This document shows, in pieces, positions 13,544-35,351 of a DNA stretch of 64,000 bases. Every line of letters begins with the position of its first letter. Within the stretch, counting starts at the first letter, position 1. Origin of the DNA: an uncultured Bacillales bacterium. GTDB taxonomy: Bacteria > Bacillota > Bacilli > Tepidibacillales > Tepidibacillaceae. A program made the position numbers and the translations under genes. The stretch is from contig CAZWWX010000005.1 of the NCBI GenBank assembly GCA_964637775.1, positions 18,277 to 82,276 of the forward strand, given 5' to 3'. The notes under the pieces are model-generated. The model was not told where the DNA came from. It saw nothing but the letters and a program-made list of their open reading frames with translations, and did no database searches.

Positions 13544-14188
13544 TTATTCAAAAAGTGGTAAAATTGATATTACCTCAACGGCTTCGTAAACAGCTCCCAA
13601 CAAAAGGACACCTACTATCGGTATATAAAGCCACGCAGTCTGAGCCAGTCCATGCTTATACCCGCCCCAACGAGATTTGATGCCAAGACCTTTGGGGAAT
13701 AAAAATGATTTGCCTTGCAGAAAGATTGCAAACATTACTAATATATAGGCCTGGCCTTCAATTAAAAGTGTTAAATAGTGCGGTATTAACGAAACATCAT
13801 TTTGAATTGGTGAAAACAAAAAGCCCCAAGTGCCAGCACGGTATAATCCCATTAAAAGACCACTAAAAGGTATGATTAATGATGGCAGTGTCATTGTTAG
13901 AAACGAACCCACTATAAGGTTAATAAGAAGTGTGTAAAAGGCTGCCAACAGAATGTTACCATTATCGTAAGCCGCCACTACAGTTGATTCCATCAGAGGG
14001 ATTGAAAGATCTTGATCTACACTTGCAATAGCATTAGCTTGTAAATCGGGAAAAACCCAAGCAACAAGCATGCAAAGAATAAACAAGCCATAAAAAATTA
14101 TGTTCATGATAATAAATACTTTTTTATTTTCTTTAATTATCTCAATTGGTTTTTGGATAAATTTTGACTGCCATAATGATTTTAACAC
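13544..14188 (-). CDS. hypothetical membrane protein, weakly SpoIIM/DUF95-like
   Basis: Polytopic protein. AAGGAGG + 8 nt precedes the GTG start. Pattern ..LINLIVGSF..GLLMGLY..HYLTLLIEGQAYIL loosely resembles DUF95. First gene of the operon with TetR. Confidence 0.6.
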   Translation of the reverse strand: MLKSLWQSKFIQKPIEIIKENKKVFIIMNIIFYGLFILCMLVAWVFPDLQANAIASVDQDLSIPLMESTVVAAYDNGNILLAAFYTLLINLIVGSFLTMTLPSLIIPFSGLLMGLYRAGTWGFLFSPIQNDVSLIPHYLTLLIEGQAYILVMFAIFLQGKSFLFPKGLGIKSRWGGYKHGLAQTAWLYIPIVGVLLLGAVYEAVEVISILPLFE

Positions 14189-14220
14189 AATAAAATCCTC
14201 CTTTAGTTCAGGTATAAGTT

Positions 14221-14286
14221 AAATAATGGTGTTACCGACCGTATAGTCGGTAACACCATTATTTACTAACTAAGCGTGCTTGTCAA
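14221..14286 (-). promoter_or_regulatory. promoter (TTGACA-17-AATAAT) overlapped by a perfect 19-bp-arm palindrome, a candidate TetR operator
   Basis: 14221-14264 = AAATAATGGTGTTACCGAC cgtata GTCGGTAACACCATTATTT. The -35 (rc TTGACA) is at 14281-14286 and the -10 at 14258-14263, inside the right arm. Confidence 0.5.
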
Positions 14287-14754: not shown

Positions 14755-15147
14755 TTATAAAGACATATATTTATCTATAAATTCAGATGGTGTCAGGATC
14801 TCTAAATTCGGAATAATTAATTCAGCAAAATCCTTATCACCTGTTATTAAAACGTCCACCTTAGCTGCGACCGCTGAAGCTATAATAGGTAAATCTTGTG
14901 GATCCCTTATACAAGGCACACCAGTTAAATCTACTGGGGTAGGAAAATATTCAAAAGATATTTCTGATATAAATATATCAAAAGCCTATAGATAGTTGGG
15001 TGTTTTCCTCCCAATCACTATTTTACTCTCCTCAATAACATAGGAACACAATACCAAACTTCGTGTTCCTATAATATGTTCGAGTAATTCAGCTAGTTTT
15101 GTACTATTAAAAATAAGTGCAGATAATAATACATTGGTATCAATCAT
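14755..15147 (-). pseudogene. PIN-domain toxin (TIGR00305-like VapC-type) interrupted by an in-frame TAG
   Basis: Own translation: MIDTNVLLSALIFNSTKLAELLEHIIGTRSLVLCSYVIEESKIVIGRKTPNYL*AFDIFISEISFEYFPTPVDLTGVPCIRDPQDLPIIASAVAAKVDVLITGDKDFAELIIPNLEILTPSEFIDKYMSL. TAG is at 14986-14988. ATG overlaps the antitoxin stop (ATGATTGA). Confidence 0.8.
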
Positions 15148-15415
15148 TATTCTCATTATTTTTAACCTGAAACTCTTTCCTAACTTCCTTAACTAAACTG
15201 ACTAATTCTTCCTCAGATTCTAAACCTAGTTCTTCTGCCAGCCTCTCAAAAGCTTTCCGTGCTTCGTAAATCGCGAACTTAGTAGGGTTCTCAATTACAA
15301 TCTTATTGCCATCTTTAACAAAAGCAACCTTATCACCTTCTTTTAAATTCAGCTGCTCCCGAATACGGATAGGTATTGTTATTTGTCCTTTAGAAGTTAT
15401 CTTAGCTAATTCCAT
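15140..15415 (-). CDS. AbrB/MazE/SpoVT-family antitoxin
   Basis: MELAKITSKGQITIPIRIREQLNLKEGDKVAFV is a SpoVT/AbrB swapped-hairpin domain, with an acidic C-terminal tail. Confidence 0.85.
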   Translation of the reverse strand: MELAKITSKGQITIPIRIREQLNLKEGDKVAFVKDGNKIVIENPTKFAIYEARKAFERLAEELGLESEEELVSLVKEVRKEFQVKNNENND

Positions 15416-19482: not shown

Positions 19483-19692
19483 ATGAGAACAAAACTGTAT
19501 GTTGGAAACATGTCATGCAGCCATTGCGAGGCAGCGATTAGCGAGGCGCTTGCGAAGCTTGATGGTGTTAGTGAATTCGCAATTGACTTAGAGAACAAGA
19601 TTGTTGAAGTCGAATTCGATAGCGCGGTTGTTACACTGAGCGGTATCATCACAGCAATTAATGAGCTTGGATATGATGTGGAGATAGTATAG
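19483..19692 (+). CDS. copZ: copper chaperone CopZ (HMA domain)
   Basis: 69 aa with MSCSHCEAAISEAL metal-binding motif, directly after copA. Confidence 0.9.
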   Translation: MRTKLYVGNMSCSHCEAAISEALAKLDGVSEFAIDLENKIVEVEFDSAVVTLSGIITAINELGYDVEIV

Positions 19693-19715
19693 AAGTAACC
19701 ACTGGCTAAAAAAAG

Positions 19716-19746
19716 AAAACGGGACATTTACATGTCCCGTTTGTTA
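19716..19746. terminator. bidirectional terminator between copZ and the DUF2075 gene
   Basis: ACGGGACAT-ttac-ATGTCCCGT with an A-run on the left and TTTGTT on the right. The stop codon of the minus-strand gene lies in the loop. Confidence 0.65.
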
Positions 19747-21431
19747 TTGTAATTATTTTTTAATATAAACTGTTCAAGATAATTCTTAAGATGCTGATTA
19801 CAAACATATACATATGTACCTTTTATTGCACGTGACATTAGAACCGTATAAATATTGATTATATATCTTTCCAACTCCTCGTTTGATTCTACTCCTTGTT
19901 TTCCTTTTTTATCAAAATATTTCCTCTTATCAATCTGTATTCTTTTGGTTATAGGATCATAAAAAATATCTTCTCCAATAATTACACCTGCATAATTTAA
20001 ATCGTATCCTTGTATTGTATGTATGCTACCGATTTCATGGATTGACTTCTTATTAATAGCCCAGCCTGCTAGGTTAGTATTCCAAATCATTTTTTCATCT
20101 TCAATTTCAATATCATAAAGATCTCGATTAACTGCTTCCTGGTAAGTCAAGTCTTTGGTCTTCCAGGGCCAAGCATATCCAGCAACTATTCGTGAAAGAC
20201 CAAAACTATTGTTTTTACTAATGATTTCTTCTTTCATTGCTTTAATCGAATCAAACAATTTAAAATCGTAATCCTCAAATACAATTCTCTGTTCAGGTGG
20301 ATTATTACTAAAAATATCCTTAATATATTTTAGATAATCCGCCCCTCCCTTGACTCTAAGTTGTGACCTAATTTGATATTTTTCAAAATTAGGCATGTTC
20401 TTAAGTGCCATAAAATCTTTTTCCCTTATATCTGACGGTCTAACCGATTGTAAGCTATCATAGAAAAATATTTGATGATCTGATTGGTTAATTATCCATG
20501 CTAATTGAGTTGCCTCTCTCTTTAAACTTAATTGTTTATTTGCATCATCAAAAGAGCCATAATTAGTTATAGATTTTCTTCTATGTAATCTATGTGCTTC
20601 ATCTACAATTAACAAATCATATTTTTCTTTCACAACATCATTAGGTCCAATAATCATATTAGATTTAAGTCCGTCTATATTCTTCATAACTTGTTTTAAG
20701 GTTTTGCGGAGTGAAGTCATTGGCACTACAAGACCAATCTTATATTCGCTTAACCTTTCATGTACATCCTTAAATTTATTAAACAACTCCTCATTTTCCT
20801 TAGAAATAAATTCCACCACTTTATTATCTGCAAACAATTTCATTAAATACATTGCCAATATAGTCTTCCCCGTACCAGCCTCTCCATTTACTATTTTAGT
20901 TGAGCATTTACCTTTTGAGACCATAAGTACGATATCTAATAATATGTCATGTATAACTGAGTATTGTTCTTCTGTAAGTCTTTTATATGGAGTATATTTA
21001 AACAATTCAGTATTGATAATATCTTCAAGTTCTTGTAAAACGACATTCTTACTATGTAATTCTTCCCAAATATTTTCAAATAATCTTTCATAGTTTTTCT
21101 TCTCATAATAATTATGATTACGCATACCACTATTACTATTTAAGATTCTATATTTTTTATCAGCTGACATATATTCAATCAGTTTAGATTCAATATCTAA
21201 AACAGCAGATTTATTAAATTCCTCATGGGCTATAATGTTGATTTTTGTAAGTTTTGCACGATCGTCAGTCTTTAGATGTTGTTTCATTCTATTAGTAATG
21301 CTTGTAGTCTCACCAATATAAGCCTCTCTATTGTCGTTTAATATGTATACAACAGGCCAGTTCTCGCCATACCATACATTTGATATATTTACAGCGACAT
21401 CTAAATTAAAGTCTCTCTCAGTAATAATCAT
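19728..21431 (-). CDS. GIY-YIG nuclease-like N-terminus fused to a DUF2075 (Schlafen-group-3-like SF1 helicase/ATPase) domain
   Basis: N-terminus WPVVYILNDNREAYIGETTSITNRMKQHL (GIY-YIG-like), Walker A NGEAGTGKT, Walker B LLIVDEAHRL, C-terminus IHTIQGYDLNYAGVIIG..YTVLMSRAIKGTYVYV. ATG is 1 nt after the MazG stop. Confidence 0.85.
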   Translation of the reverse strand: MIITERDFNLDVAVNISNVWYGENWPVVYILNDNREAYIGETTSITNRMKQHLKTDDRAKLTKINIIAHEEFNKSAVLDIESKLIEYMSADKKYRILNSNSGMRNHNYYEKKNYERLFENIWEELHSKNVVLQELEDIINTELFKYTPYKRLTEEQYSVIHDILLDIVLMVSKGKCSTKIVNGEAGTGKTILAMYLMKLFADNKVVEFISKENEELFNKFKDVHERLSEYKIGLVVPMTSLRKTLKQVMKNIDGLKSNMIIGPNDVVKEKYDLLIVDEAHRLHRRKSITNYGSFDDANKQLSLKREATQLAWIINQSDHQIFFYDSLQSVRPSDIREKDFMALKNMPNFEKYQIRSQLRVKGGADYLKYIKDIFSNNPPEQRIVFEDYDFKLFDSIKAMKEEIISKNNSFGLSRIVAGYAWPWKTKDLTYQEAVNRDLYDIEIEDEKMIWNTNLAGWAINKKSIHEIGSIHTIQGYDLNYAGVIIGEDIFYDPITKRIQIDKRKYFDKKGKQGVESNEELERYIINIYTVLMSRAIKGTYVYVCNQHLKNYLEQFILKNNYNNKRDM

Positions 21432-21432
21432 T

Positions 21433-21747
21433 TTATAGCTCCGTGTATTTTTTACTACTTCCTTTTACTTTATCTACCTCATATCGGGATTCATTCTTAT
21501 CAATCTTTTTATGGGCAACTTCAACTAAATCCATTCCCAGTTTTTCTGCTAACATTACTGTGTATAAAAAAACATCTGCTATCTCATCCTCAACTTTCTC
21601 TTGTTTAAAATTATTGTCCCATTGGAAATTTTCTAATAATTCTGCAGATTCAATTACTATTGACTTCGCCAAGTTTTCAGGAGAATGAAATTGACCCCAG
21701 TCTCTTTCCCTATTAAATTTATTTACTCTTTCAACTATTTCTTTCAT
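21433..21747 (-). CDS. MazG-like nucleotide pyrophosphohydrolase (small all-alpha NTP-PPase)
   Basis: FNRERDWGQFHSPENLAKSIVIESAELLENFQW..EIADVFLYTVMLAEKLGMDL, i.e. the EExxE..D metal-binding pattern of the MazG/dCTPase-like family. Confidence 0.85.
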   Translation of the reverse strand: MKEIVERVNKFNRERDWGQFHSPENLAKSIVIESAELLENFQWDNNFKQEKVEDEIADVFLYTVMLAEKLGMDLVEVAHKKIDKNESRYEVDKVKGSSKKYTEL

Positions 21748-21850
21748 CGCTTAGATCTCCTTGATTAAAGTAATAATTTGTAATTTTTATACTTATTTTA
21801 TCATAAAAATTAACTTATGTAGTCCAACTTATTAATAAATGATAAATATA

Positions 21851-21870
21851 GGGGACACTCCCGTGTCCCC
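21851..21870. terminator. GC-rich hairpin GGGGACAC-tccc-GTGTCCCC (terminator-like)
   Basis: Perfect 8-bp stem followed by TTTGTT on plus and TATATTT on minus. Lies between the mazF stop and the MazG-like gene promoter region. An additional AT hairpin ATATCAAG-ttat-CTTGATAT is at 21913-21932. Confidence 0.5.
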
Positions 21871-21941
21871 TTTGTTGCTTGCGTCCTTCACACTAAAAAA
21901 ACTTTATAAATTAATATCAAGTTATCTTGATATTACATTAA

Positions 21942-22328
21942 TCATTGGGTCAACAACATTTCATAAATCGCACTAAACACTATATTACACTTTGTAAGCA
22001 CCTCTTTCGGTGCCTTTTCTACAAATACAAATCTACGTTCACTTAAATCAAGAACTTTGGCCTGATCTATTAAAATATCACCTTTGGTTTTGAGATTGAA
22101 GGAATCAATATTTACTCTTGTAAAAAAATCTCTAACGGTGCTCGTGACTGGAACAACAGTCACTAACCCATTCAGTTCCAGCTGAGTAATTGGATCTGAT
22201 ATGACAAGTCCCGGTCTATAACCTTGCTGTTCATGACCTGTTGAAGGTGAAAAACTAACTTTAATTATATCTCCAAACTCTAGATTAATGTAATTTTCTT
22301 TATACCCATCCGAAGGTCTCTTTACCAT
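21942..22328 (-). CDS. mazF: MazF/PemK-family endoribonuclease toxin
   Basis: GDIIKVSFSPSTGHEQQGYRPGLVISD..VVPVTST..DQAKVLD is typical PemK/MazF. ATG overlaps the mazE stop (ATGGTAA). Confidence 0.88.
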   Translation of the reverse strand: MVKRPSDGYKENYINLEFGDIIKVSFSPSTGHEQQGYRPGLVISDPITQLELNGLVTVVPVTSTVRDFFTRVNIDSFNLKTKGDILIDQAKVLDLSERRFVFVEKAPKEVLTKCNIVFSAIYEMLLTQ

Positions 22329-22579
22329 ATTTCTTTACCAACCGGTTCACCCCAATCAATATGATCCTTAGGGTTATATTGTTTATTAGTAGCCTGCTCA
22401 GCTAAAATTTGAAATTTAGTTTTGTTCTGTTGCTTAGTTAACAATAATTTATCCCCTTCAACGCTCATCTCAAAAATTACATCCCCAATGTTGGTACTAT
22501 CAACATTTAATTTATCTAGTATCATTTTGGGTATGCGAATAGCAGCACTATTCCCCCACTTAACTAAATTTACTGTCAT
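22322..22579 (-). CDS. mazE: MazE/AbrB-family antitoxin
   Basis: MTVNLVKWGNSAAIRIPKMILDKLNV SpoVT/AbrB domain. AAGAGGTG + 6 nt precedes ATG at 22579 (the ORF-track GTG at 22588 is in the SD). Confidence 0.88.
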   Translation of the reverse strand: MTVNLVKWGNSAAIRIPKMILDKLNVDSTNIGDVIFEMSVEGDKLLLTKQQNKTKFQILAEQATNKQYNPKDHIDWGEPVGKEIW

Positions 22580-22634
22580 TGAAAACACCTCTTACATTCT
22601 AAATATATATCTTACTTATAGTATATACATGTGT

Positions 22635-24122
22635 CTACATTCCGTCAACTACTTCCCGCAGTTTCTCCCACAGCCTTACCATCGCAAAAGTATCCAGATG
22701 ACAGTACGCCAGCAGCGATTTCCTATGTGCCTCAAGCTCTTCCTCGCTCATCTCAGCCATTCTGCTAAATAATGCTGATGCTTCCAGACCATTATGAACT
22801 CCTTCCAGCTGACTATAATCAAGACCAGGATCACCGGGGAATAGGGCTGGCAACACATATTTAATAGAATACGAGCCTTTCATAGCTTTCGTGTAATAAT
22901 AGTGCTTCTGAAAAGGAATCATTAAATCTTGCATATTATCATGCATATTCATTAGATGGTCTTCGTATTCTGGAAAAGCCTGAGCAAGTTTTTTTATTAC
23001 ACCTTTTTCAAAACCCATATTATATGCCAACACGCAGACATCGCGTGGTATATCTGCACATAACTTTGTTACCAGACCAATTCGCGGATCGACTCCCGGA
23101 TAAGCCAAGTACTCTTCATGATGTAACTGTCCACCCTCTTCTTCGATGTAATGCAAAGAGTACTGAAAGGCAATCTGCTGATAGGGACTAGAGTTGTCGT
23201 AGAGCGGGATGGCTGGCTGAATAGATTCGAAATCCAGGAAATACATCGGGTAATACAATTTATTAAGTACTCCCCTAATCTCTGGCTTGTTAATGTACGT
23301 TTCCGGATTATATAGCTCATACTCGACCTGACGATGTTGCTTGTCCTTCAGCTGGTTACTCGCGTAGAGGTCATCAAAAGAAATAATCCCCTGGTCATAG
23401 AAAGCTAGCTTATTAGGCCTCCACAACCCAGCTACATTAAACACGTTGGGCTTAGGCAAGTCAGCCGTGCAGTAAGCGAAGAATCCGCAGCCATAGGGAA
23501 TGAAGCAATAGTCACCAATATCATCAGGCGGCTCATTAGCCATCCCCAGATATGAGCTAATATTGGCAAGATGTCTTTCAACCACAGGAACCAGGCTCTG
23601 AACATCTCCTGTTACATCCACGATCTTAAACAGCTGCTCTAAATCCAGGTCGCCATAGCGCACATATTCGTTGTTAATATATACGACATGTACTTTGCTA
23701 ACCTCATAGCCCAGCTTAGTAAGCACATAGTATTGGTAGGCAGCGTCATCATAGTATATATCTTTTATTTCCGTAGAACTCTTAACCTCGTAAATTTCTA
23801 ATTCCCGGTTACCTAAGTTTCTAAGTATATCCACTCGACAGAGCAGGCCATTATAATCAAAGGTCGCCTCTGTAATAATCTCTACATTATTAGAAATCTT
23901 TTCGCTGGTATCGTCTATCATTGCTTCCGCATCGTTCCATGGGATTTCGCTGTACTCGCCGAATAAACCCTTTGCCAGGTTACCAACTTCGAGACCGACC
24001 TCTAAGATATTCTGATTCGTGACCGATTCATCATATTCGTCTGGGCGAAAACGTTTTAACCAGAGCATTTTCGGGCACTGGACTCCCAGGACATAATCGG
24101 ATTTAGTTAATCGTAGTGACAT
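22635..24122 (-). CDS. DUF2779 protein: Cas4/RecB-like PD-(D/E)xK nuclease N-domain plus RNase-H-fold C-domain
   Basis: LTKSDYVLGVQCPKMLWLKRF N-terminus typical of DUF2779. RVDIL..LEIYEVKSS (D..ExK). Cys pattern C16 plus CFIPYGCGFFAYC resembles the Cas4/AddB Fe-S staple. C-domain has YFLDFES and CHLDTFAM. Confidence 0.8.
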   Translation of the reverse strand: MSLRLTKSDYVLGVQCPKMLWLKRFRPDEYDESVTNQNILEVGLEVGNLAKGLFGEYSEIPWNDAEAMIDDTSEKISNNVEIITEATFDYNGLLCRVDILRNLGNRELEIYEVKSSTEIKDIYYDDAAYQYYVLTKLGYEVSKVHVVYINNEYVRYGDLDLEQLFKIVDVTGDVQSLVPVVERHLANISSYLGMANEPPDDIGDYCFIPYGCGFFAYCTADLPKPNVFNVAGLWRPNKLAFYDQGIISFDDLYASNQLKDKQHRQVEYELYNPETYINKPEIRGVLNKLYYPMYFLDFESIQPAIPLYDNSSPYQQIAFQYSLHYIEEEGGQLHHEEYLAYPGVDPRIGLVTKLCADIPRDVCVLAYNMGFEKGVIKKLAQAFPEYEDHLMNMHDNMQDLMIPFQKHYYYTKAMKGSYSIKYVLPALFPGDPGLDYSQLEGVHNGLEASALFSRMAEMSEEELEAHRKSLLAYCHLDTFAMVRLWEKLREVVDGM

Positions 24123-24167
24123 AGGCTCTGCCTCCTTTATTCTTATTATACGCTATTAAAAATAAAA

Positions 24168-25106
24168 TTATATTTTCATCAAATTCATGATCAAGTTAAC
24201 CAATAAATCTTTTTCGGTCGGATCCGAAACAGCCAACATTATTGTTAGAGCTACTAATGTCTTGTTATCAATTACTTGGGTATCTTGTTTAAACAAGGCA
24301 TCGTTTTTATCTAAAAAATATACAAATAAGGCAGCAGCAATTCTTTTATTTCCATCGGCAAAACCATGGTTTTTTACTAAAAAATATAACAGCTGTGCAG
24401 CTTTTTCTTCCAAAGTTGGATACAACTCTTGACCTTCAAAGGTTTGATAAATAGCGTTGATACTTGATTTAAATTCCCCGCCTCGTTCAACCCCGAACAC
24501 ATCCGTTTCGTAATCAGCTTTCATGGATTGAATAATATCAATACATTCAGCATACGATAATACATGAGAAGTTTTTGTCCCACTTGGCCTCTTAATTTTT
24601 TTATGATCATAATCATCCAATAATTGTAGCGCTAAAGTATAACTTTCCAATACAGATAAAACCTGAGAAGCTTCTAGCTGATTACTGGATCTTTCTATAA
24701 TTTTAATCAGCTGAAGCTGCTCCTTATAAGAAATTTTATTGATGTTAAAGGCATATCCTTTAATCGCGTAATCTCTTAGTACGGAAGTTGCCCATTTCCT
24801 AAACGTAATGCCTCTCTTAGAATTAACACGATAACCAACCGCTAATATTACATCTAAATTATAATACATCGGAGGTCTTGAGGATTTATTTTCACTTCTG
24901 TCGAATATTTCGACAGAAGTATCTTTATCAAGTTCTCCATTTTTGAAAATATTCGTAATATGATAAGATATCGAAGACCTTGCTGTTTCAAAAAGAACCG
25001 ACATCTGTTCTTGTGTTAACCATACCGTATCAGCTTCTGGGCTTACATTTACCTCAATCGTAAACTTCTCATCATTAAAAACAATTATCTCATTTATATT
25101 TTCCAT
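24168..25106 (-). CDS. RhuM-family N-domain fused to a Fic/Doc toxin domain
   Basis: N-terminus DTVWLTQEQMSVLFETARSSISYHITNIFKNGELD..YYNLDVILAVGYRVNSKRGITFRKWAT (RhuM). C-terminus HGFADGNKRIAAALF is the Doc-type HxFx(D/N)(A/G)NKR motif. Confidence 0.85.
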   Translation of the reverse strand: MENINEIIVFNDEKFTIEVNVSPEADTVWLTQEQMSVLFETARSSISYHITNIFKNGELDKDTSVEIFDRSENKSSRPPMYYNLDVILAVGYRVNSKRGITFRKWATSVLRDYAIKGYAFNINKISYKEQLQLIKIIERSSNQLEASQVLSVLESYTLALQLLDDYDHKKIKRPSGTKTSHVLSYAECIDIIQSMKADYETDVFGVERGGEFKSSINAIYQTFEGQELYPTLEEKAAQLLYFLVKNHGFADGNKRIAAALFVYFLDKNDALFKQDTQVIDNKTLVALTIMLAVSDPTEKDLLVNLIMNLMKI

Positions 25107-25203
25107 CGCACTTGCTCCTTACCACTAATTCAAAAATTAAACATAAACTCCTACACATAAGGTTCATACATTAAGTATATACTTGTACCTTAATTGGTAC
25201 AAC

Positions 25204-25231
25204 AAAAGGGGACACAATCGTGTACCCTTTT
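25204..25231. terminator. orphan terminator-like hairpin in the divergent RhuM-Doc / Fic intergenic region
   Basis: AAAAGGGGACAC-aatc-GTGTACCCTTTT (one mismatch) with T-runs on both strands. Near-copy of the 21851 hairpin. Confidence 0.4.
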
Positions 25232-25418
25232 ATTCCTATTATACACTATTTCTCCAACATCTAAACTGTAAATCTCAGCCAAATAATAATCATCCAAGGA
25301 ATGTCACAAGTCGCTAAATTTAATTTGCCAATTTTAAGTTTCTATAGTATATTTAACATATAATTAATTAGAGGAAGTGAAACTCATTTCATTTCCTCTA
25401 ATAAGAGGATGAGGAAAT

Positions 25419-26609
25419 ATGAAAAACCCATGGTATAGTCTTGAATATGAAACCATTCCCTGGACAAGCAACGTTGACATGTCCTATTTATCACGACAAT
25501 CGAAAAGAAAAATATTAGATACCTATGAATCGTCCATACCGGATACAATAGCTGATAAATCTCTAACACTGCCATCGCAACTGGAGGCTCGAGTATCCGA
25601 TCTCTTAATTAATATGTCACGTTTCGATATGGCTCAATCACAAAAGGGCTACAGCTTCCCCACACTTCTACTGCGGAGCGAGTCTGCGGCCAGTTCTCAG
25701 ATCGAGAATTTAACCTCCGGGATTAGAAATATTTCGCTAGCCGAATTAACTGATAAAGTACCGAAAAATGCACAGTTAATTGCAGGAAATGTTCACGCTA
25801 TGCGGGAGGCCCTTAATATTGAGGAGCCAATCAGCTATTCAACAATTCTTGAAATCCACCGAATGTTAATGATAGATGTTTATGGAGAATTAGCTGGAAC
25901 TATCAGACAACAGACCGTATGGATTGGCGGCACATCTTTATCTCCACACGGAGCAACCTTTGTGCCACCGCACTTTTCAAGAATTGATGATTATCTACAA
26001 GACCTCATTAAGTACGCCGGTAGAATAGATATAAATCCGCTAGTAAAGGCAGCAATACTTCACGCACAGTTTGAAATTATCCACCCGTTTATTGATGGTA
26101 ACGGCAGGACAGGCAGAGTCCTTATCCATAAATCACTTAGAGATGACGGTGTTTTGAAAACAGTAGCCCTACCCATATCGGCCGGATTACTCAACAATAC
26201 CAGCGACTATATGAAAGCCCTTATGGAATTCCAGAAGGGTGATCCAATCCCCATCATAGAGCAATTAATTGGAGCGATTGAAACGTCCCTACTCATCGGC
26301 GACATTGTGTCAGATGAAATCTCAGTAATCCAGTATAAGTGGTTAAGCAGAATTAATGAGCGAAAGAGTTCATCTATCTACAGACTAGTTAATATTTTAT
26401 TAGAACAACCAGTAATCAACTCTAACTATTTATCACACAAACTTGATATTACGCCTAGGGCTGCCAATCAACTCATTGAAAGAGCTATTGGCTATGGAAT
26501 ACTCAGTCGATTTGGTTCAGAAAAACGCGGTATTTTCTATCAGTCAAACGATATCATTGAGATTATGAACCGGGTTTCAAGCAATGAGATAATAAAAAGA
26601 AATTTATAA
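25419..26609 (+). CDS. Fic-family protein (AMPylase-type) with N-terminal inhibitory helix and C-terminal wHTH-like region
   Basis: Canonical HPFIDGNGRTGRVLIH. N-terminal SSQIEN fits the (S/T)xxxE(G/N) auto-inhibition motif. Confidence 0.88.
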   Translation: MKNPWYSLEYETIPWTSNVDMSYLSRQSKRKILDTYESSIPDTIADKSLTLPSQLEARVSDLLINMSRFDMAQSQKGYSFPTLLLRSESAASSQIENLTSGIRNISLAELTDKVPKNAQLIAGNVHAMREALNIEEPISYSTILEIHRMLMIDVYGELAGTIRQQTVWIGGTSLSPHGATFVPPHFSRIDDYLQDLIKYAGRIDINPLVKAAILHAQFEIIHPFIDGNGRTGRVLIHKSLRDDGVLKTVALPISAGLLNNTSDYMKALMEFQKGDPIPIIEQLIGAIETSLLIGDIVSDEISVIQYKWLSRINERKSSSIYRLVNILLEQPVINSNYLSHKLDITPRAANQLIERAIGYGILSRFGSEKRGIFYQSNDIIEIMNRVSSNEIIKRNL

Positions 26610-26615
26610 GATAAC

Positions 26616-26644
26616 AAAAACCACTGTATGAACAGTGGTTTTTG
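26616..26644. terminator. bidirectional terminator (Fic gene / rpsI)
   Basis: AAAAACCACTG-tatgaa-CAGTGGTTTTT. Confidence 0.7.
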
Positions 26645-26663
26645 TATATATCGTAAAAATATA

Positions 26664-27056
26664 TTAACGTTTTGAGAATTGTGGTGCACGACGAGCGCCT
26701 TTAAGTCCGTATTTCTTACGCTCTTTCATTCTTGCGTCACGTGTTAAAAATCCAGCAGATTTTAGAGTTCCACGATAGTCGCCTTCAGTTTTTAGTAGCG
26801 CACGAGAGATCCCGTGTCTGATCGCGCCCGCTTGTCCGGTTGAGCCTCCACCCTTTGCACTAACCAGTACATCATAGGTTCCTAGAGTACCTGTCGCTAC
26901 AAGAGGTTGTTTAACAATCAACTTAAGAGTTTCCATATCGAAATATTCGTCGATGTCACGTTTATTAATAATGATTTTTCCATCGCCCGGTACTAAACGA
27001 ACACGCGCTACTGAGCTTTTACGTCTGCCGGTGCCATAAAATTGTATCTGTGCCAA
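26664..27056 (-). CDS. rpsI: 30S ribosomal protein S9
   Basis: [44 protein letters not shown]. Confidence 0.97.
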
Positions 27057-27075
27057 AACTTTTTACCTCCTTCGC

Positions 27076-27513
27076 TTAACCTCTAATTTCCCATACTTCT
27101 GGTTGTTGTGCTTGATGTGGATGTTCAGCTGTTGGATAAACTTTAAGTTTTAATCCTTGCTTACGTCCAAGTCTGCCCTTCGGCAGCATTCCTCTAACCG
27201 CTGATTCAATTACGCGCTCTGGGCGCTTTTTCAAAAGCTCACCGGCTGAAATTGATTTCAGACCACCTGGGTAGCCAGAGTGACGGTAGTATTTTTTATC
27301 TGCTAATTTGTTACCTGTTAGAACGATTTTCTCTGCATTTATTATAATAACGAAATCGCCTGTGTCAATGTGTGGCGTAAATTGTGGCTTGTGTTTACCG
27401 CGAATCAGTGTCGCAGCTTCGGTTGCCAAACGGCCCAAAGTCTTACCATCCGCATCGATTACATACCATTTACGCTCAACCTCGTTGGGCTTCGCCATAT
27501 ATGTCGTACGCAT
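27076..27513 (-). CDS. rplM: 50S ribosomal protein L13
   Basis: [47 protein letters not shown]. Confidence 0.97.
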
Positions 27514-27679
27514 TCCTTTTCCTCCTAGCTAACTCGTAAATTTAATAAATTCATTCCATCTCATATGTATATCAACTACGGGGCTGTGTTGAAATACCAA
27601 AAATCATTTTACTACATACGCCGCTCGTAGTCAACATTTATCTGATGTTTTTACGTTTATGACTAAACTATTTTCGCAT

Positions 27680-28426
27680 CTAATACTCGACGTCCCAAAG
27701 GAAAAGTCCACTCGCCGGCGCTGTTGGTCCAGCCTCCCGCCGGTCTTGTTTCTCGATAATTATCCCTATCTCCTCCGGCAAAAAAGTTCCATCTCCAACT
27801 CGGACTAGCGTACCGATCATGATGCGGACCATGTTATGGAGAAAGCCGCTCCCCCTAATCTCAAAGATTACCCGGTCCCCCTCTCGCCAGATCTCCGAGT
27901 GAGTGATGGTGCGGACTCGGTCATCCTTCCCATACAGAGTCGAGAAGCTTGTAAAGTCATGTGTCCCCTTGAAGTATTGTGCAGCTTGCTGCATCGCCAC
28001 CACATCAATCGCGAACGGCACATGCCAGCTATATTGCCTCATGAAGACATCGCTAATCCGCGCATTATAGATGTAATAGCGGTAGGTCTTCATCACGGCA
28101 TCATAGCGCGAATGAAACTCTTTCCCAACTTCGCTTGCTGCGGTAACGCGGATATCCGCAGGCAGCAGGCGGTTAAAGACCGTTGGCAGCTTTTCAATTG
28201 GAATAGCCTCATCCAGCTTAAAGTGCACCACTTGCTTGCGTGCGTGGACACCTGCATCAGTCCGACCGGAAGCTGCCAAGCGCACATTCCCGCCCGTCAG
28301 TTCGAATAAGACTTTCGCCAATTCGGCCTGCACTGTCGGGCGATCCGGTTGCGTCTGGAATCCATGATAATTAGTTCCATCATAGCTAATTTCAAGTTTA
28401 ACGTTACGTTTAATATTTCGGCTCAT
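27680..28426 (-). CDS. truA: tRNA pseudouridine(38-40) synthase
   Basis: ISYDGTNYHGFQTQP..ASGRTDAGVHARKQVVHF..GSGFLHNMVRIMIGTL. Markedly GC-rich relative to flanks. Confidence 0.95.
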   Translation of the reverse strand: MSRNIKRNVKLEISYDGTNYHGFQTQPDRPTVQAELAKVLFELTGGNVRLAASGRTDAGVHARKQVVHFKLDEAIPIEKLPTVFNRLLPADIRVTAASEVGKEFHSRYDAVMKTYRYYIYNARISDVFMRQYSWHVPFAIDVVAMQQAAQYFKGTHDFTSFSTLYGKDDRVRTITHSEIWREGDRVIFEIRGSGFLHNMVRIMIGTLVRVGDGTFLPEEIGIIIEKQDRREAGPTAPASGLFLWDVEY

Positions 28427-28476
28427 CTAGAACCCCTCTCATCCGTCTATCTAATCACCAATAGATCCATCACACA

Positions 28477-29286
28477 CTACACTAACACTGCTATCCCAAC
28501 CAACACTCCGATCACTACAACCACCAGCACCCACTCGCGGCCGCTCATTGCCACATTCACCAAGCTCGTCCGCGCTGACCGCGGCTCATAGCCGCGAAGC
28601 TCCATCGCTAACGCAATGTTGTCAGCGCGCTTCATCGTATTAGCCAGTACCGGCACCAGAAGCGCCAAGAGATCCCGCGCCCGCCCCCAAAGGGTCGGTC
28701 GTCCCTGCCCGCGCCCGCGGGCCATCTGGGCCATATTCAGCCGTTCGCCCTCCTCAAGCACGATCGGTATAAAACGCAATGCAAGAGCTAACATAATTCC
28801 AATCTCTGCCGTCGGCACTTTCAGATAACTGAGTGGCTTTAGCAAGCGTTCAACTGCCTGTGCAGCGCTCAGGACCGGCGTAGACAGCGTAAACAGGCTT
28901 GCTGCTATAATTATCATAGTTAACCGGCAGGCGACGTACATAGCCTGGATTAGACCCTCTAGTTCGATTGTCACGAAGCCGACTGCAAGCAGGACTCCGC
29001 CCCCCTTTGTGAAAAACAAGTGAAAGAGCGCGAAAATCGCTATCACCCAGAGGACAGGCCGCATTCCCCGCACCAAAAACCCTGCCGGTATTCGCGACGC
29101 GATCACACCCACAACCAACAAAACCGCCATTAACCCAAATCCCGCGAACGACTTCACAAGTACCAGTGTCACGAGAAAAGCTATCAGAATTAATAACTTA
29201 GCCAGAGCTCCAAGCCTATGGAGCGGCGAATCCAGTGCCAGGTAACGTCCAATCAAAAATTGACTCGCCCTAGACATAGCCATCAC
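28477..29286 (-). CDS. ecfT: energy-coupling factor transporter transmembrane component
   Basis: Polytopic protein with [14 protein letters not shown] coupling-helix region (Ala-Arg-Gly motif). Conserved position after ecfA. Start may be an internal Met (29277). Confidence 0.9.
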
Positions 29287-30994
29287 CTATGTACTGCTCG
29301 CCTGTATTCTGCGCCAACTCATCTTTATCATACATACCCATATATTTCGCTAACTCTCCGCCAGCATTCATCAACGCGCCCGGCTCACCACTCGCAACAA
29401 TTCGCCCAGCCTCCATCACAACTAACCGGTCAACCAGACTCAATAACCTCTCAACCTCGTGGCTCGCGATAAGAATCGTCCGTCCCTCAGCTTGCAAATG
29501 TCGAATAATCTGCACCAACTCGCGGCAACCGACATCGTCAAGTCCGGCAAAGGGCTCATCGAACAGGACCAGGTCCGGCTCATAGATCAGAATCCCTGCA
29601 AGCGCGACTTTTCTCTGCTCACCACCGCTTAGCACAAAAGGTGACAGCTTACCATAGCGTTCGAGCGGTAAACCAAAATTACCCAGCAATCCAGCAAGCC
29701 TTTCCCTTGCTATCGCATCCGGAACGCCAAAGTTTCGTGCACCGTATAAGACATCATCTTCGACCGTGGCTGCAAACAGCTGCTGCTCCGGATATTGAAA
29801 GGCAAAGCCCACCGGCCCCTCTGTTCCTGCGCCCCCCGCCGGCGTTTCCGGCTCGAGCAAGCCCGCCACCAACTTGAGCAAAGTCGATTTACCGGCGCCC
29901 GTGTTCCCAACAATCCCTACTGTCGAGCCCGCCGGAACCGTAAGCGACACGTCGCTTAGGGCCCTCCAGGCCCCCGGCCCCCCATCATTATATGTATAAC
30001 TTACATTGTGTAAAACGACTCCAGCAGTCCCCGCCTGACTATCTCGGCTTTCACCACCATCCACGGCACCGCCTTCAACGACTACCTCAACTCCATCACT
30101 ACTTCCAACAACACTCATCAACCCCTGTATATCCGCGTATCCCGCAGTCACGGGCTCGCCGTCCTCAAATCCTGCTGCGCAGCCACTATAAACTATTCGC
30201 CCAGCCTCCATGACAGCCAGTCGGTCCCCAACCCGCGACTCACTCAAACGATTCGTGATCAATACAACTGCTATATTTCCCTCCACAGCTAATTCCTTAA
30301 GAAAGGCGATTATTTCCTTACGGGTTATCGGATCTAACATCGAAGTCGCCTCATCAAGGATAAGAACTTCCGGCTCCAGCGCCAGAATGCCGGCTATTGC
30401 CAGCTTTTGCTTCTCACCACCCGAGAGAAAGCTTGGATCAAAATCTGCCTTATCCACTAAGCCAACTTTCTTGAGTGCAGCCAGAGCACGCTCCCTAATA
30501 ATATCAGGTACCAGCGCCTGATTCTCGAGCCCGAAGGCAACATCAAGCAAGACAGTGCTCCCAATAATCTGATTATCAGGATTCTGCATTACTAAACCAA
30601 CACGCGGAAAACTTTCCTTACCTCTCTCCTTACACCTTTCCTTACAATCCACACCATCACACCCAAAACTTACCTCATCACCTACACCACAATCACAACT
30701 CTCCCTATCACCCTCAGCACAACCCTCACTCCACTCAAACTCACCACCCGAAGATGCCAAGGCTCCAGCCAATACCAAGGCTAGTGTCGACTTGCCGGAC
30801 CCATTGCGACCAGTTAAGACCAGCAACTCACCCGTTCTAATCTCTAAATCTACGCCTCTAAGAGCCGGTCCTCTGCCAGACCCAAACTCCGGATTTTCCG
30901 CTACATTACGATTCGTCCCAACCCCCGAATCTTCCGCCGCACCACGACTCATCTCATATTCATATGTCATACCGCTTATTCTTAGCACCTTCAC
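29270..30994 (-). CDS. ecfA: fused tandem ECF-transporter ATPase (EcfA1-EcfA2 in one 574-aa polypeptide) with low-complexity and Cys-rich inserts
   Basis: Two full ABC cassettes: GRNGSGKST / LSGGEKQK / ILDEATS and GNTGAGKST / LSGGEQRK / [10 protein letters not shown]. Insert [44 protein letters not shown] lies between Walker A and the Q-loop of cassette 1. Confidence 0.88.
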
Positions 30995-31085
30995 CTAATT
31001 CACCCTACCTATGTAAACCAAAAAGGGCGCAGACCGAGATTCACCTATTACCCTCGCCATCGCCCTTTTCATTTTAAACTAATCT

Positions 31086-31451
31086 CTACTCGACTAACTC
31101 AAGGAACACCATCTCCGCAGCATCGCCACGACGAGGTCCTAACTTAAGTATGCGTGTATATCCACCTTGACGTTCTTCGAAACGTGGAGCAATATCGGAA
31201 AAAAGCTTCTGAATTGCATCTTGTCCCGTTTCTTGATTCGCAACTTCTCTTCTTACAAAAGCCGCAACCTGGCGTCTCGCATGTAAATCACCGCGCTTAG
31301 CAAGCGTTATCATTTTTTCAGCGATTGAACGCACCTCTTTGGCCTTGGATTCTGTTGTCTCAATCCGCTCGTAAATAAACAGATCAGTTACCAGATCACG
31401 ATATAAGGCCTTGCGGTTAGAAGAGACACGATTTAGCTTTCTATATGCCAT
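31086..31451 (-). CDS. rplQ: 50S ribosomal protein L17
   Basis: [35 protein letters not shown]. Confidence 0.97.
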
Positions 31452-31477
31452 TGCCTTCGTCCTCCTTCAAAGTACTC

Positions 31478-32422
31478 CTAATCTTCTTTGTTCAGCGCCA
31501 AGCCTAATTCTTGTAGCTTGAACTGAACTTCCTCTAATGATTTACGGCCCAGATTACGGACTTTCATCATGTCCTCTTCTGTGCGCGTAATCAATTCCTG
31601 AACCGTGTTAATTCCCGCACGCTTCAAGCAGTTATAAGAACGAACCGACAGGTCCAATTCCTCGATCGTCATTTCAAGGACCTTTTCTTTCTGGTCTTCT
31701 TCTTTTTCGATCATAATTTCTGCTTCTTGCGCCTCTTCAGTTAAACCTACAAAAAGGTTTAGATGCTCGGTCAAAATTTTCGCACCGAAAGAAACTGCTT
31801 CTTCCGGATGAATACTACCATTCGTCCATACTTCCAATGTTAGTTTGTCAAAGTCAGTTACCTGACCGACACGTGTATCTTCAACAGTGAAATTAACTCT
31901 GGTTACCGGTGTATATAACGAGTCGATTGGTATTAGCCCAATAATCTGCTCGTCTTTTTTATTACCCTCAGCCTTAACATAGCCACGTCCGCGATTAACA
32001 CGAATCAGCATGTGCAATCTTGCACCTTCTTCAACAGTAGCTATTACTTGGTCTGGATTTAATATTTCAACATCGCTGTCAGCTCTAATGTCACCGGCAG
32101 TGATTTCTCCGCCGCCAACAACATCAATTTCTAACACTTTTTCTTGATCAGAATGAATTTTTAGTGACAGCTTTTTAAGATTAAGAATAATCTCAGCTGT
32201 ATCCTCAAGTACACCCGGGATCGTTGAAAACTCATGTAACACACCATCAATTTGAACAGAGGTTACTGCTGCACCCGGCAATGATGATAGTAGAATTCTT
32301 CTTAACGAGTTGCCAAGCGTAGTTCCATATCCTCTTTCAAGCGGTTCAACTACGATCTTACCGTAGCTTGAATCTTTAGCAATTTCCACTAGTTCAATTT
32401 TCGGTTTTTCAATCTCTATCAT
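31478..32422 (-). CDS. rpoA: DNA-directed RNA polymerase subunit alpha
   Basis: [42 protein letters not shown]. Confidence 0.97.
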
Positions 32423-32434
32423 TAAAAACCCTCC

Positions 32435-32824
32435 TTAAACGCGACGTCTTTTTGGTGGACGGCATCCGTTGTGCGGAATCGGTGTAACGTCTTTGATCAT
32501 TCGTACCTCAAGACCTGCAGCCTGCAAGGAGCGAATAGCTGCCTCTCTGCCGGCTCCCGGGCCCTTAACTACCACGTCAACACCCTTCATTCCATGTTCC
32601 ATAGCAGTCTTTGCAGCTGCCTCAGCAGACATCTGTGCCGCAAATGGCGTGCTTTTTCTAGAACCTTTAAAACCTAATGCGCCCGCGCTACTCCAAGATA
32701 TCACGTTGCCATGCGGGTCTGTGATTGTCACGATTGTATTATTAAAAGTGGACTTAATATGTGCAACTCCACTCTCAATGTTTTTTCTTTCACTTTTTTT
32801 AATTCTTGTAGTTCTTTTAGCCAT
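32435..32824 (-). CDS. rpsK: 30S ribosomal protein S11
   Basis: [48 protein letters not shown]. Confidence 0.97.
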
Positions 32825-32838
32825 TTCGTCATCCCTCC

Positions 32839-33207
32839 TTACTTCTTCTTATTAGCTACAGTTCGTCTTGGACCTTTTCTGGTTCTTGCATTGGTTTTAG
32901 TTTTTTGTCCGCGAACCGGTAGACCACGACGATGACGAATGCCTCTATAAGAACCTATTTCAGTTAGGCGCTTAATATTAAGAGCAACTTCACGTCGCAG
33001 ATCTCCCTCAACCTTAACATTTTTATCGATTACTTCACGTAATCTTGAAACCTCATCCTCGGTAAGATCTCTAACTCTTGTATTAACATCAATATCTGCT
33101 AACTTCAAAATCTTTTGGGAAGTCGATTTCCCAACACCAAAAATATAGGTTAACGCAACCTCTACTCGTTTATCACGAGGTAAGTCTACACCTGCTATAC
33201 GTGCCAT
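32839..33207 (-). CDS. rpsM: 30S ribosomal protein S13
   Basis: [43 protein letters not shown]. Confidence 0.97.
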
Positions 33208-33226
33208 TCAATTACACCTCCTTATA

Positions 33227-33583
<357 letters not shown>

Positions 33584-33591
<8 letters not shown>

Positions 33592-33907
33592 GGATTAACT
33601 CCCCTTTCTTTCCCATAGATTCCTCTAAACCGTTCATGTACTCTTGAATTACATATCGCAGTTTAGCGTTGGATATCCGATTTTCCTCCATCACGCTCGT
33701 TATTACCTCTTTAGAAACTATTCCTGTTGATCTTAGATGGATTACATTCTTTTTCTTGGGGTTATCATACTTGCGACGATCACCATCAACGATTAGAACG
33801 TAACGTTCATTAACAATTTCTAAAACGACTGCATATTTACCGGTATCTCGGCCTTTCTTAACTTGTACAATTTCGCCAACTTTATAACCTGAACCTGTTT
33901 CACTCAT
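33584..33907 (-). CDS. KOW-domain RNA-binding protein (YbzG-like)
   Basis: [27 protein letters not shown] motif. Conserved slot between map and infA. 8-nt overlap with infA. Confidence 0.8.
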
Positions 33908-33915
33908 CTAATCAC

Positions 33916-34662
33916 CTACAACTTGGTCATTATTTCATGACCATCTTTTGTAATCACTATTGTGTGTTCGAAATGCGCACACAAAGAATTATCTACGGAA
34001 ACAACTGTCCATCCATCCGCTAAAACTCGCACAAATCTTTCACCTATAATTATCATCGGTTCAATAGCTAAGGCCATACCTATCTTCAGTCGTGGTCCTC
34101 GATCAGGAGGTCCATAATTCGGGATATGGGGATCCTCATGTAGTCTCGCTCCAATTCCGTGGCCAACATATTCACGTACAATCGAGTAATCATATAATGC
34201 AATATGTTGCTCAATCGCGTGCGATATGTTCGATAGCCGCTCATCTGGCATCGCTTCAGCTAAACCCTTGTATAAAGATTCCTCTGTTGCTTGTAATAAT
34301 TTTTTAGCACTTTCTGATATCTCACCAACACCATAGGTCCAGGCGGAATCGCCATGATAGCCCTGATATTCAGCTCCTATATCGATACTAATTATGTCAC
34401 CCTCCTTCAAAACTCGGTCGCTCGGAATCCCGTGGACTAATTCCTCATTAACTGAGGTGCAGATACTTGCGGGAAACCCACCGTATCCTTTGAAAGAAGG
34501 TAAAGCATTTTGTTTCCTAATATACTCCTCGGCAAGCCGGTCTAACTCCTCAGTTGTTATACCGGGCTTAACCTGTTCCGTCAGCATTTGATGCGTCTCA
34601 GCAACAATTCTACCGGCGCTGCGCATTAGCGCAACTTCATGCTCAGTCTTACAGATAATCAT
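33916..34662 (-). CDS. map: type I methionine aminopeptidase
   Basis: [44 protein letters not shown] metal ligands. Confidence 0.96.
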
Positions 34663-34664
34663 TA

Positions 34665-35351
<687 letters not shown>

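Follow-up and report, generated by a model that had tools for sequence, protein, structure and literature searches.

A composite toxin and defence locus between rpsI and copZ of an uncultured Bacilli lineage, with a MazG-like/GIY-YIG-helicase pair as a candidate anti-phage module

The classic precedent for the exchange of cassettes at one locus is the pneumococcal DpnI/DpnII system, and the proteins SLFN11 and SLFN14, which combine a nuclease with a helicase of the same type as the one discussed below, have roles in antiviral and replication-stress responses. In bacteria, the single protein Nhi unites an HsdR-like PD-(D/E)xK nuclease with a DUF2075 helicase and degrades phage replication intermediates (10.1101/776245), SoFic is a reported defence gene (10.1101/2022.05.11.491447), and the RhuM-family single gene PDC-S05 confers about 1000-fold protection against T7 and T5 in Escherichia coli, where a PDC-S05 member also protects against T4 (10.1101/2024.09.26.614923). 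Here we compare with these systems the interval 19728-26609, between copZ and the rplM-rpsI operon, of a 64,000-nt stretch of DNA from an uncultured Bacillales bacterium (contig CAZWWX010000005.1 of assembly GCA_964637775.1, positions 18,277 to 82,276), referred to below as the window. The interval is likely to be a composite chromosomal defence and toxin locus, in which two independently variable slots surround a DUF2779 gene conserved in the lineage and cassettes are exchanged by recombination. One of the slots carries a MazG-like gene and a GIY-YIG-helicase gene as a pair and, judged by analogy, the chances that this pair has an anti-phage role appear to us evenly balanced.

Starting from copZ, the reverse strand of the interval encodes a GIY-YIG protein with an SLFN-g3/DUF2075 helicase domain (19728-21431; Pfam PF09848, 222 bits), a MazG-like protein (21433-21747; PF12643, 64.9 bits), a MazF/PemK toxin of 128 aa (21942-22328; Pfam, 65.8 bits), a MazE antitoxin of AbrB/SpoVT type with 88 aa (22322-22588; Pfam, 29.9 bits), a DUF2779 protein of 495 aa (22635-24122; PF11074, 153.7 bits, with weak matches to PADLOC Cas4 models) and a fusion of RhuM with Fic/Doc of 312 aa (24168-25106; Pfam RhuM and Fic, PADLOC PDC-S23). 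They are followed on the forward strand by a Fic protein of 396 aa (25419-26609; Pfam Fic, 76 bits; PADLOC SoFic). The list of open reading frames (ORFs) places all seven where the initial annotation had put them, and its domain calls agree with our profile hidden Markov model searches with Pfam, PADLOC v2 (2023 library) and NCBIfam. MazEF, a SoFic-type Fic, PDC-S23 and a nuclease-helicase are all found within 7 kb (Pfam and PADLOC). Fic and RhuM-Doc make up slot A (24140-26650), as delimited by comparison with sister lineages, and MazEF together with the MazG-like/helicase operon makes up slot B (19686-22645), as delimited by BLAST breakpoints against sibling strains.

Alignment of the copZ-rpsI interval in relatives, which had been proposed as a check, reveals that its content differs between close relatives: four kinds of filling occur among lineages with 95-100% identical RpsI, and the flanks are syntenic. 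Sibling strains with an identical RpsI (L041-L048) retain Fic, RhuM-Doc and DUF2779, but in slot B, between DUF2779 and copZ, they possess a 3.3-kb DpnII-type restriction-modification cassette composed of a D12 methyltransferase, a DpnII endonuclease, an N6_N4 methyltransferase and an 82-aa ORF, and homology to them breaks at positions 19685 and 22646 of the window (BLAST). The gene order is rpsI, DUF2779, the same DpnII restriction-modification genes, RtcB and copZ in the lineage L167 (GCA_964397765.1; RpsI 99%), and rpsI, DUF2779, mazE-mazF and copZ in L163 (GCA_964568525.1; RpsI 95%). Compared with L163, the additional DNA of the window is 19694-22041 (2.35 kb), which holds the operon of the MazG-like protein and the helicase together with the 3'-terminal part of mazF. 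All strains with an identical RpsI possess slot A; it is missing from the 99% and 95% lineages, neither of which has Fic or RhuM-Doc at the rpsI site, and DUF2779 adjoins rpsI in every related lineage examined (L041, L163 and L167). The closest named RpsI proteins, from Vulcanibacillus and Tepidibacillus, are 83% identical, and in Vulcanibacillus rpsI is followed by a Bacillus-like cwlD-gerD-pdaB-spoIIM arrangement. A TruA scan of species-representative genomes returned only relatives of 50% identity or less, without genes of the interval beside rpsI.

Two of the slot-B variants deserve a remark of their own. The D12-class methyltransferase gene in the DpnII cassette of one sibling is broken into two ORFs of 201 and 149 aa (L046:10703-11720), possibly by a frameshift or an assembly error. 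The RtcB RNA ligase gene between the DpnII cassette and copZ of L167 (L167:15137-16237) is a third kind of slot-B content; RtcB is able to repair RNA cut by toxins.

Relative to L041, the window has no difference over 25548-36296 (10.7 kb), 2 differences in RhuM-Doc, 61 in DUF2779, 153 in copZ-copA, which fade near 17389, and 29 within 25224-25547 (the RhuM-Doc/Fic control region and the first Fic codons; about 9% divergence). This mosaic of single-nucleotide polymorphisms (SNPs), with diverged tracts around the cassettes on an identical backbone, argues for homologous recombination through the flanks, and since these strains share a backbone without differences for more than 10 kb, the recombination tracts are directly readable. 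We propose that one cassette probably replaces another when the conserved flanks (copA/copZ, DUF2779 and rpsI) recombine homologously, without a recombinase of the cassettes' own, which would account for the lack of one in the interval. As had been annotated, neither the ORF list nor the repeat searches gave an integrase, a transposase or a direct repeat derived from a tRNA in or beside the interval; moreover, integrase or transposase fragments are absent from the interval and the neighbours checked, and direct or att-like repeats were not found at the slot junctions. The recombinase gene and the att or attC repeats of an integrative mobile element (an integrative and conjugative element, a prophage or an integron) are both lacking. 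Integration linked to a tRNA was also rejected, as the closest tRNA cluster lies beyond copA and spoIIM; the sole tRNA-like repeat of the interval, a 13/16-nt match within mazF, is taken as chance. The notion of a chromosomal defence island holds in so far as defence and toxin genes cluster here without a recombinase, but they form two slots around DUF2779 and not a single island of seven genes.

The base composition of the interval varies from gene to gene. Against a mean G+C content of 0.415 for the window, it is low in the helicase (0.298), MazG-like (0.311), MazEF (0.33-0.35) and RhuM-Doc (0.329) genes and host-like in DUF2779 (0.429) and Fic (0.401), and 25 of the 34 lowest 500-nt segments of the 64 kb lie inside the interval. 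The sharp drop described in the initial annotation is exact in its figures (15/60 at 21001 and 35/60 at 18301), but it compares extremes, with copA (0.494) above average, and it does not apply to the host-like DUF2779 and Fic genes. Its view that all seven genes are of the conflict type is likewise not supported for DUF2779, a gene conserved in the lineage. We argue that DUF2779 is a resident nuclease, a fixed element of the lineage rather than part of the variable arsenal, because it is conserved here, has a host-like composition and is quasi-essential in JCVI-syn3.0 (PMC13621843). Its N-terminal part is a Cas4-like PD-(D/E)xK nuclease (D98, E112-x-K114 and Cys16/206/212/218; PADLOC Cas4 models at 1.7e-8) and its second part a DEDD-type RNase H-like exonuclease domain (D297-x-E299 and H475-x-D477), a reading that follows earlier work (PMC13621843, PMC3985635); a sequence search of solved structures with DUF2779 gave no match.

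The helicase protein of slot B (567 aa) possesses an N-terminal GIY-YIG domain (residues 27-100) followed by an SLFN-g3/DUF2075 helicase of superfamily 1B (SF1B; PF09848, residues 180-544) with a Walker A motif GEAGTGKT at 183-190 and DEAH at 277-280. The GIY-YIG score of 22.4 bits is slightly below the cut-off of 22.6, and the assignment is backed by invariant residues and an AlphaFold2 model: Y29, Y38, G40, R48, E81, N98, K189, D277 and E278 are invariant across 21 homologues, and the closest folds to the model (predicted local distance difference test score 82) are the SF1B proteins Upf1, SLFN11/14, RecD2, Dna2 and Dda. A sequence search of solved structures with the helicase gave no match. 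Its partner is a 104-aa all-alpha NTP pyrophosphohydrolase of the DCTPP1 type, whose closest solved relatives are dCTP pyrophosphatase 1/RS21-C6 (E 4e-16) and whose EXXE...EXXD metal site (E33, E36, E39, E55 and D58) is 100% kept in 71 distinct partner sequences. The MazG-like stop codon is only 1 nt from the helicase start, which indicates one operon; this operon has its own promoter-like TTGGAC...TGATAAAAT and ribosome-binding site (AAGGAGA) downstream of the mazF terminator.

The two genes are strictly paired elsewhere. A helicase profile recovered 86 loci with the module (80 metagenomic and 6 viral), which are not independent of each other, 42 being distinct among those of at least 8 kb. 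The MazG-like gene is adjacent to the helicase homologue in 81 of the 86 (directly upstream in 73, one gene apart in 2 and downstream in 6), and three of the five other loci are cut by a contig end or short of upstream DNA. MazE or MazF was found at none of the 86 loci, and judging from these sequences the MazG-like gene belongs with the helicase and not with MazEF. An operon like mazEFG of E. coli was accordingly rejected for the window: the MazG-like protein is of another family (16.9 bits against the 208 of the tandem-domain MazG model NF007113), it is linked to the helicase, and its gene lies behind the mazF terminator, with a gap of 194 nt and a terminator hairpin in between.

Several variants of the helicase were observed. 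A C-terminal LexA/UmuD-like Peptidase_S24 domain is fused to it in 33 of the 86 loci (L124:5971-8220, L073, L075, L089, L093 and others), nearly always with the MazG-like partner still present, and one variant has an N-terminal HSDR_N domain. The homologue of L115 bears an N-terminal extension of about 230 aa without an assigned domain. No MazG-helicase fusion that might serve as Rosetta-stone evidence occurs in the top 150 representatives, the long forms of which bear S24 or HSDR_N, and a third conserved partner was likewise rejected, the 150 nearest neighbours belonging to 175 Pfam families. A minority of these neighbours is of the defence type (C5 methylase four times; RhuM, DndB, PLD and AbiEii-like AAA_21 twice each). 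The family comprises 411 clusters at 50% identity (E <= 1e-30). Of the plasmid records with a helicase homologue, 70 of 106 are from Bacillus, and the pair is present in both of the two inspected; it is carried by megaplasmids of Bacillus thuringiensis and Bacillus mycoides (Bacillus cereus group) beside HNH endonucleases and a zeta toxin, and is annotated on plasmids as 'nucleotide pyrophosphohydrolase' and 'DUF2075 domain-containing protein'. Six viral contigs also carry a helicase homologue. With PADLOC v2 the helicase gave only weak partial matches (PDC-S14, AbiO, PDC-S41 and BrxD) and no full-length model, and our literature search found no paper treating DUF2075 together with MazG. The fusion of DUF2075 to GIY-YIG was mentioned in passing in 2019 (PMC6765204).

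MazEF, SoFic and PDC-S23 are already catalogued as types or candidates, and the new item of the locus is the MazG-like/GIY-YIG-helicase pair, a plausible candidate for the uncharacterised immunity system that had been anticipated in this region. On present sequence evidence it would best be regarded as a novel variant of nuclease-helicase immunity with two genes and a defence function that we infer. In a manner similar to Nhi, the helicase would load on replication or recombination intermediates of the phage, and the GIY-YIG domain would cut them. The pyrophosphatase would remove a (modified) dCTP-type nucleotide needed by the phage or, alternatively, would keep such nucleotides out of the host DNA so that the nuclease spares the host, and in the S24-bearing relatives RecA-ssDNA filaments would trigger activation by self-cleavage. 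We tentatively suggest, as a possibility somewhat short of an even chance, that the pair represents a widespread and undescribed two-gene anti-phage system, in which nucleotide-pool editing is combined with nuclease-helicase attack on phage DNA and about one third of the members are armed through RecA-ssDNA sensing by S24. Such a system would follow, in bacteria, the logic of SLFN11, by which genomes under replication stress are killed or cleared.

The main rival to an immune function is that the pair, perhaps together with DUF2779, is an SOS-linked module of DNA repair and nucleotide-pool sanitation, in which the pyrophosphatase destroys non-canonical dNTPs, the GIY-YIG helicase processes DNA containing them and S24 provides the link to RecA. 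The S24 (LexA/UmuD-like) fusions in 33 of the 86 homologues and a partner whose closest solved relatives are house-cleaning dCTP pyrophosphatases fit such a role equally well, and GIY-YIG is also the nuclease fold of UvrC and Slx1; against this reading, the pair is strain-variable, occupies the very site of the siblings' restriction-modification system and has a G+C content of 0.30 on a background of 0.415. Module neighbours are largely not defence genes and many are housekeeping, and one S24-fused helicase gene, without a MazG-like partner, comes after dnaG-rpoD (L127), but the spread of the pair is patchy and includes megaplasmids, with HNH endonucleases and a zeta toxin alongside, and some viral contigs. 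Finally, DUF2779 may be a housekeeping gene, as its quasi-essential status in a minimal cell would suit (PMC13621843), whereas Nhi, the analogous protein with nuclease and DUF2075 domains, has proven anti-phage activity (10.1101/776245). Considering all this, a repair and sanitation module seems unlikely to us. Beyond the points just named in its favour, some others weigh against a defence locus with exchanged cassettes: all relatives compared are metagenome contigs, found by exact-protein look-up of RpsI and near-identical variants; within the species, slot B was seen with no more than two alleles; the window Fic scores 75.6 bits against the 550-bit cut-off of the NCBIfam SoFic equivalog NF046030; and Fic and MazEF proteins are common outside defence.

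In the MazEF part of slot B, mazE overlaps mazF by 7 nt and both Pfam domains are above cut-off. MazE reaches 38.9 bits with NCBIfam, short of the equivalog cut-off, and the scores of the pair stay below the MazEF equivalog cut-offs; MazEF is a member of the type II family and not an orthologue of E. coli MazEF. MazF shares 77% identity over 101 aa with its syntenic counterpart in the sister species L163, and since the mazEF region has 78% nucleotide identity to its L163 orthologue, the same as the flanks, MazEF is ancestral to the genus. Nucleotide homology to L163 stops at 22042, inside mazF. In L163 itself (L163:12298-12789) MazF has 112 aa, and its final residues are read in antisense from the copZ 3' end. 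This arrangement resembles the scar of a deletion by which slot B was emptied and the toxin shortened.

In slot A, Fic matches the PADLOC SoFic model at 1.1e-64 over 309 of 361 profile positions (52-360), and its residues 108-383 can be aligned with the SoFic structures 3EQX/3ZCN. It possesses the motif HPFIDGNGRTGR at 222-233, which fits HxFx(D/E)GNGRxxR, an N-terminal inhibitory-helix motif SSQIEN at 92-97 and a C-terminal region resembling a helix-turn-helix. Fic is a member of the SoFic-type family, not an orthologue, and would act as an AMPylase; its catalytic motif is intact, and it has an auto-inhibitory helix. RhuM-Doc matches the PADLOC candidate PDC-S23 over its full length (7.1e-117; residues 1-311) and the Doc model TIGR01550 with 41.9 bits (cut-off 38.65), and its Doc-type motif HGFADGNKR at 247-255 fits HxFx(D/N)(A/G)NKR. 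This kinase-type motif suggests that growth arrest would be caused by phosphorylation of a translation factor. We found no experimental test of PDC-S23 itself in the literature. Proteins annotated as 'RhuM/Fic/DOC family protein' are common in Bacillota, where they occur alone, in unrelated contexts and without a Fic neighbour; a functional pair of Fic and RhuM-Doc was rejected, the RhuM-Doc homologues at 60-70% identity being solitary. A hidden antitoxin gene 5' of RhuM-Doc was also rejected, with only implausible ORFs of 20-63 aa at hand.

The divergent control region between RhuM-Doc and Fic (25107-25418) comprises a hairpin at 25207-25230 (GGGGACAC-AATC-GTGTACCC) and an inverted repeat of 16 nt (ATTAGAGGAAGTGAAA / TTTCATTTCCTCTAAT; 25367-25402) directly 5' of the Fic start. 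This repeat would sequester a Shine-Dalgarno-like GAGGAAG and may be a translational control element for Fic. Several of the inter-strain SNPs sit inside it.

It is rather improbable that the genes of the interval are selfish addiction modules of the toxin-antitoxin kind, kept because their loss is harmful and of no use to the host against phages or plasmids. MazEF, Doc and Fic certainly have classic toxin folds, and the degraded AbrB/PIN pair nearby (14755-15415) indicates that such modules turn over here, but RhuM-Doc and Fic have no cognate antitoxin gene, slot B alternates with a restriction-modification system, anti-phage activity has been reported for the RhuM family and SoFic (10.1101/2024.09.26.614923; 10.1101/2022.05.11.491447), and the nuclease-helicase pair would be left unexplained.

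Strong hairpins, said to bound every module, were found at four of the six junctions (19717-19742, 21850-21871, 25207-25230 and 26614-26645), and a hairpin scan gave none at the junctions of DUF2779 with mazE (46 nt) and of RhuM-Doc with DUF2779 (45 nt). Altogether 12 terminator-like sites were found, compared with 5.0 +/- 2.4 in shuffles. The first hairpin, between the stop codons of copZ and the helicase, has a perfect 11-bp stem (AAACGGGACAT-TTAC-ATGTCCCGTTT; 19717-19742) and is probably a bidirectional terminator. Its 20-nt core ACGGGACATGTAAATGTCCC is also copZ-proximal in the siblings' non-homologous DpnII cassette (L041 17603-17620), so that both slot-B cassettes have an identical 20-nt hairpin at their end, probably because an ancestral terminator has been retained in the two alleles. 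In the region between mazF and the MazG-like gene (21748-21941, reverse strand), read by eye and by hairpin scan, the GC-rich hairpin 21850-21871 is the mazEF terminator, and a 10-bp AT-rich palindrome lies at 21912-21935, directly past the mazF stop. The 14-bp-stem hairpin at 26614-26645, common to the convergent Fic and rpsI, stands in place of the different rpsI terminator of lineages without slot A; by comparison of the junctions, the slot A insertion merely substitutes for that terminator.

Three of these hairpins (19717-19742, 21850-21871 and 25207-25230) have related GGGACA...TGTCCC stems, which occur within the 64 kb only in the interval. We considered them as recombination sites or a repeat element and treat them as terminators instead: they are flanked by an A-tract and a T-tract, typical of bidirectional terminators, and the motif was present in none of the 86 module-carrying loci of other organisms, while two scans of viral contigs gave 0 matches and 16 scattered single matches, respectively. 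The terminator reading offers no explanation of why the stems resemble each other. A decayed mobile element (an island, a prophage end or an integron-like array) that has lost its recombinase or uses one in trans, with these hairpins as its sites, would suit the low G+C content, the restriction of the related hairpins to module borders, the one hairpin that ends both slot-B cassettes and a phage-integrase fragment directly after one helicase homologue (L063), but is very improbable given the absence of any integrase or transposase ORF or fragment and of direct repeats at the slot junctions, the terminator-like flanks and foreign distribution of the motif, and the SNP mosaic in the flanking core genes, a trace of homologous recombination.

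A few other features of the window were recorded outside the interval. The low-GC gap between two tRNA clusters at 14755-15415 holds a second, decayed toxin-antitoxin pair, with an AbrB/MazE-type antitoxin (15140-15415, reverse strand) followed by fragments of a PIN_3 toxin (14986-15156, N-terminal; 14755-14919, C-terminal). A perfect palindrome with a 20-bp stem (14220-14265; TAAATAATGGTGTTACCGAC...GTCGGTAACACCATTATTTA) lies directly 3' of a membrane-like ORF of 214 aa (13544-14188) that has no Pfam match. At 29270-30994 two ECF-transporter ATPase genes are fused into a 574-aa ORF through a GC-rich, cysteine-rich linker; in L163 the genes are separate (253 and 268 aa), other strains have versions of 518, 572 or 612 aa, and the nucleotide identity of this region to L167 is about 76%, against about 90% in its flanks.

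The locus is a clean natural example, from an uncultured Bacilli lineage, of defence cassettes swapped at a fixed site of the core genome without mobile-element machinery, and the place of the MazG-like/helicase module as an alternative to restriction-modification singles out a conserved two-gene unit. The module is also accessible: it is found in plasmids of two cultured species, B. thuringiensis and B. mycoides, the residues for catalysis are well defined, and its S24 variants hint at a RecA trigger. Should the module prove to be an immune system, nuclease-helicase immunity would gain a connection to nucleotide pyrophosphatases, and the Schlafen/DUF2075 theme common to bacteria and animals would become broader.

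Among the described systems, Nhi (SERP2475 of Staphylococcus epidermidis; also 'Nhi-like' of Millman et al. 2022) has the same arrangement of an N-terminal nuclease and a DUF2075/SF1B helicase in one polypeptide and the same structural neighbours Dda, Upf1 and Dna2 (10.1101/776245), and both are patchy and often plasmid-borne. By its published description, however, the Nhi nuclease is of the HsdR-like PD-(D/E)xK kind and not GIY-YIG, and no Nhi-named model is among the PADLOC matches of our helicase, in a library copy that could not be confirmed to include one. Moreover, Nhi acts as a single gene, whereas the helicase described here almost always has a MazG-like partner and is often fused to S24; the pairing at 81 of the 86 loci speaks for a unit of two genes. 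The helicase domain of SLFN11 and SLFN14 belongs to the same Pfam family (PF09848) and both proteins are among the top structural matches, but the Schlafen tRNA endonuclease fold is unrelated to GIY-YIG and the sequence identity is about 11-12%. The MazG-like protein shares the all-alpha fold family and the EXXE...EXXD metal site with DCTPP1/RS21-C6 and MazG; it differs as a 104-aa single domain in a nuclease-helicase operon from the tandem-domain MazG of E. coli.

As for slot A, the window Fic has the canonical Fic motif, the N-terminal inhibitory motif and the domain layout in common with SoFic of Shewanella oneidensis, to which it aligns with about 62 bits. RhuM-Doc is a full-length match to PDC-S23 and is solitary, as in other genomes; unlike it, the tested RhuM protein PDC-S05 is without the Doc effector domain by its paper's description (10.1101/2024.09.26.614923). 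The exchange itself resembles the DpnI/DpnII locus of Streptococcus pneumoniae, where non-homologous cassettes also replace each other at one chromosomal site without a dedicated recombinase, and one allele of our lineage is likewise of the DpnII type. The present locus differs from the pneumococcal one in that two adjacent slots flank a conserved nuclease gene, and the alternative to restriction-modification is MazEF together with the nuclease-helicase operon.

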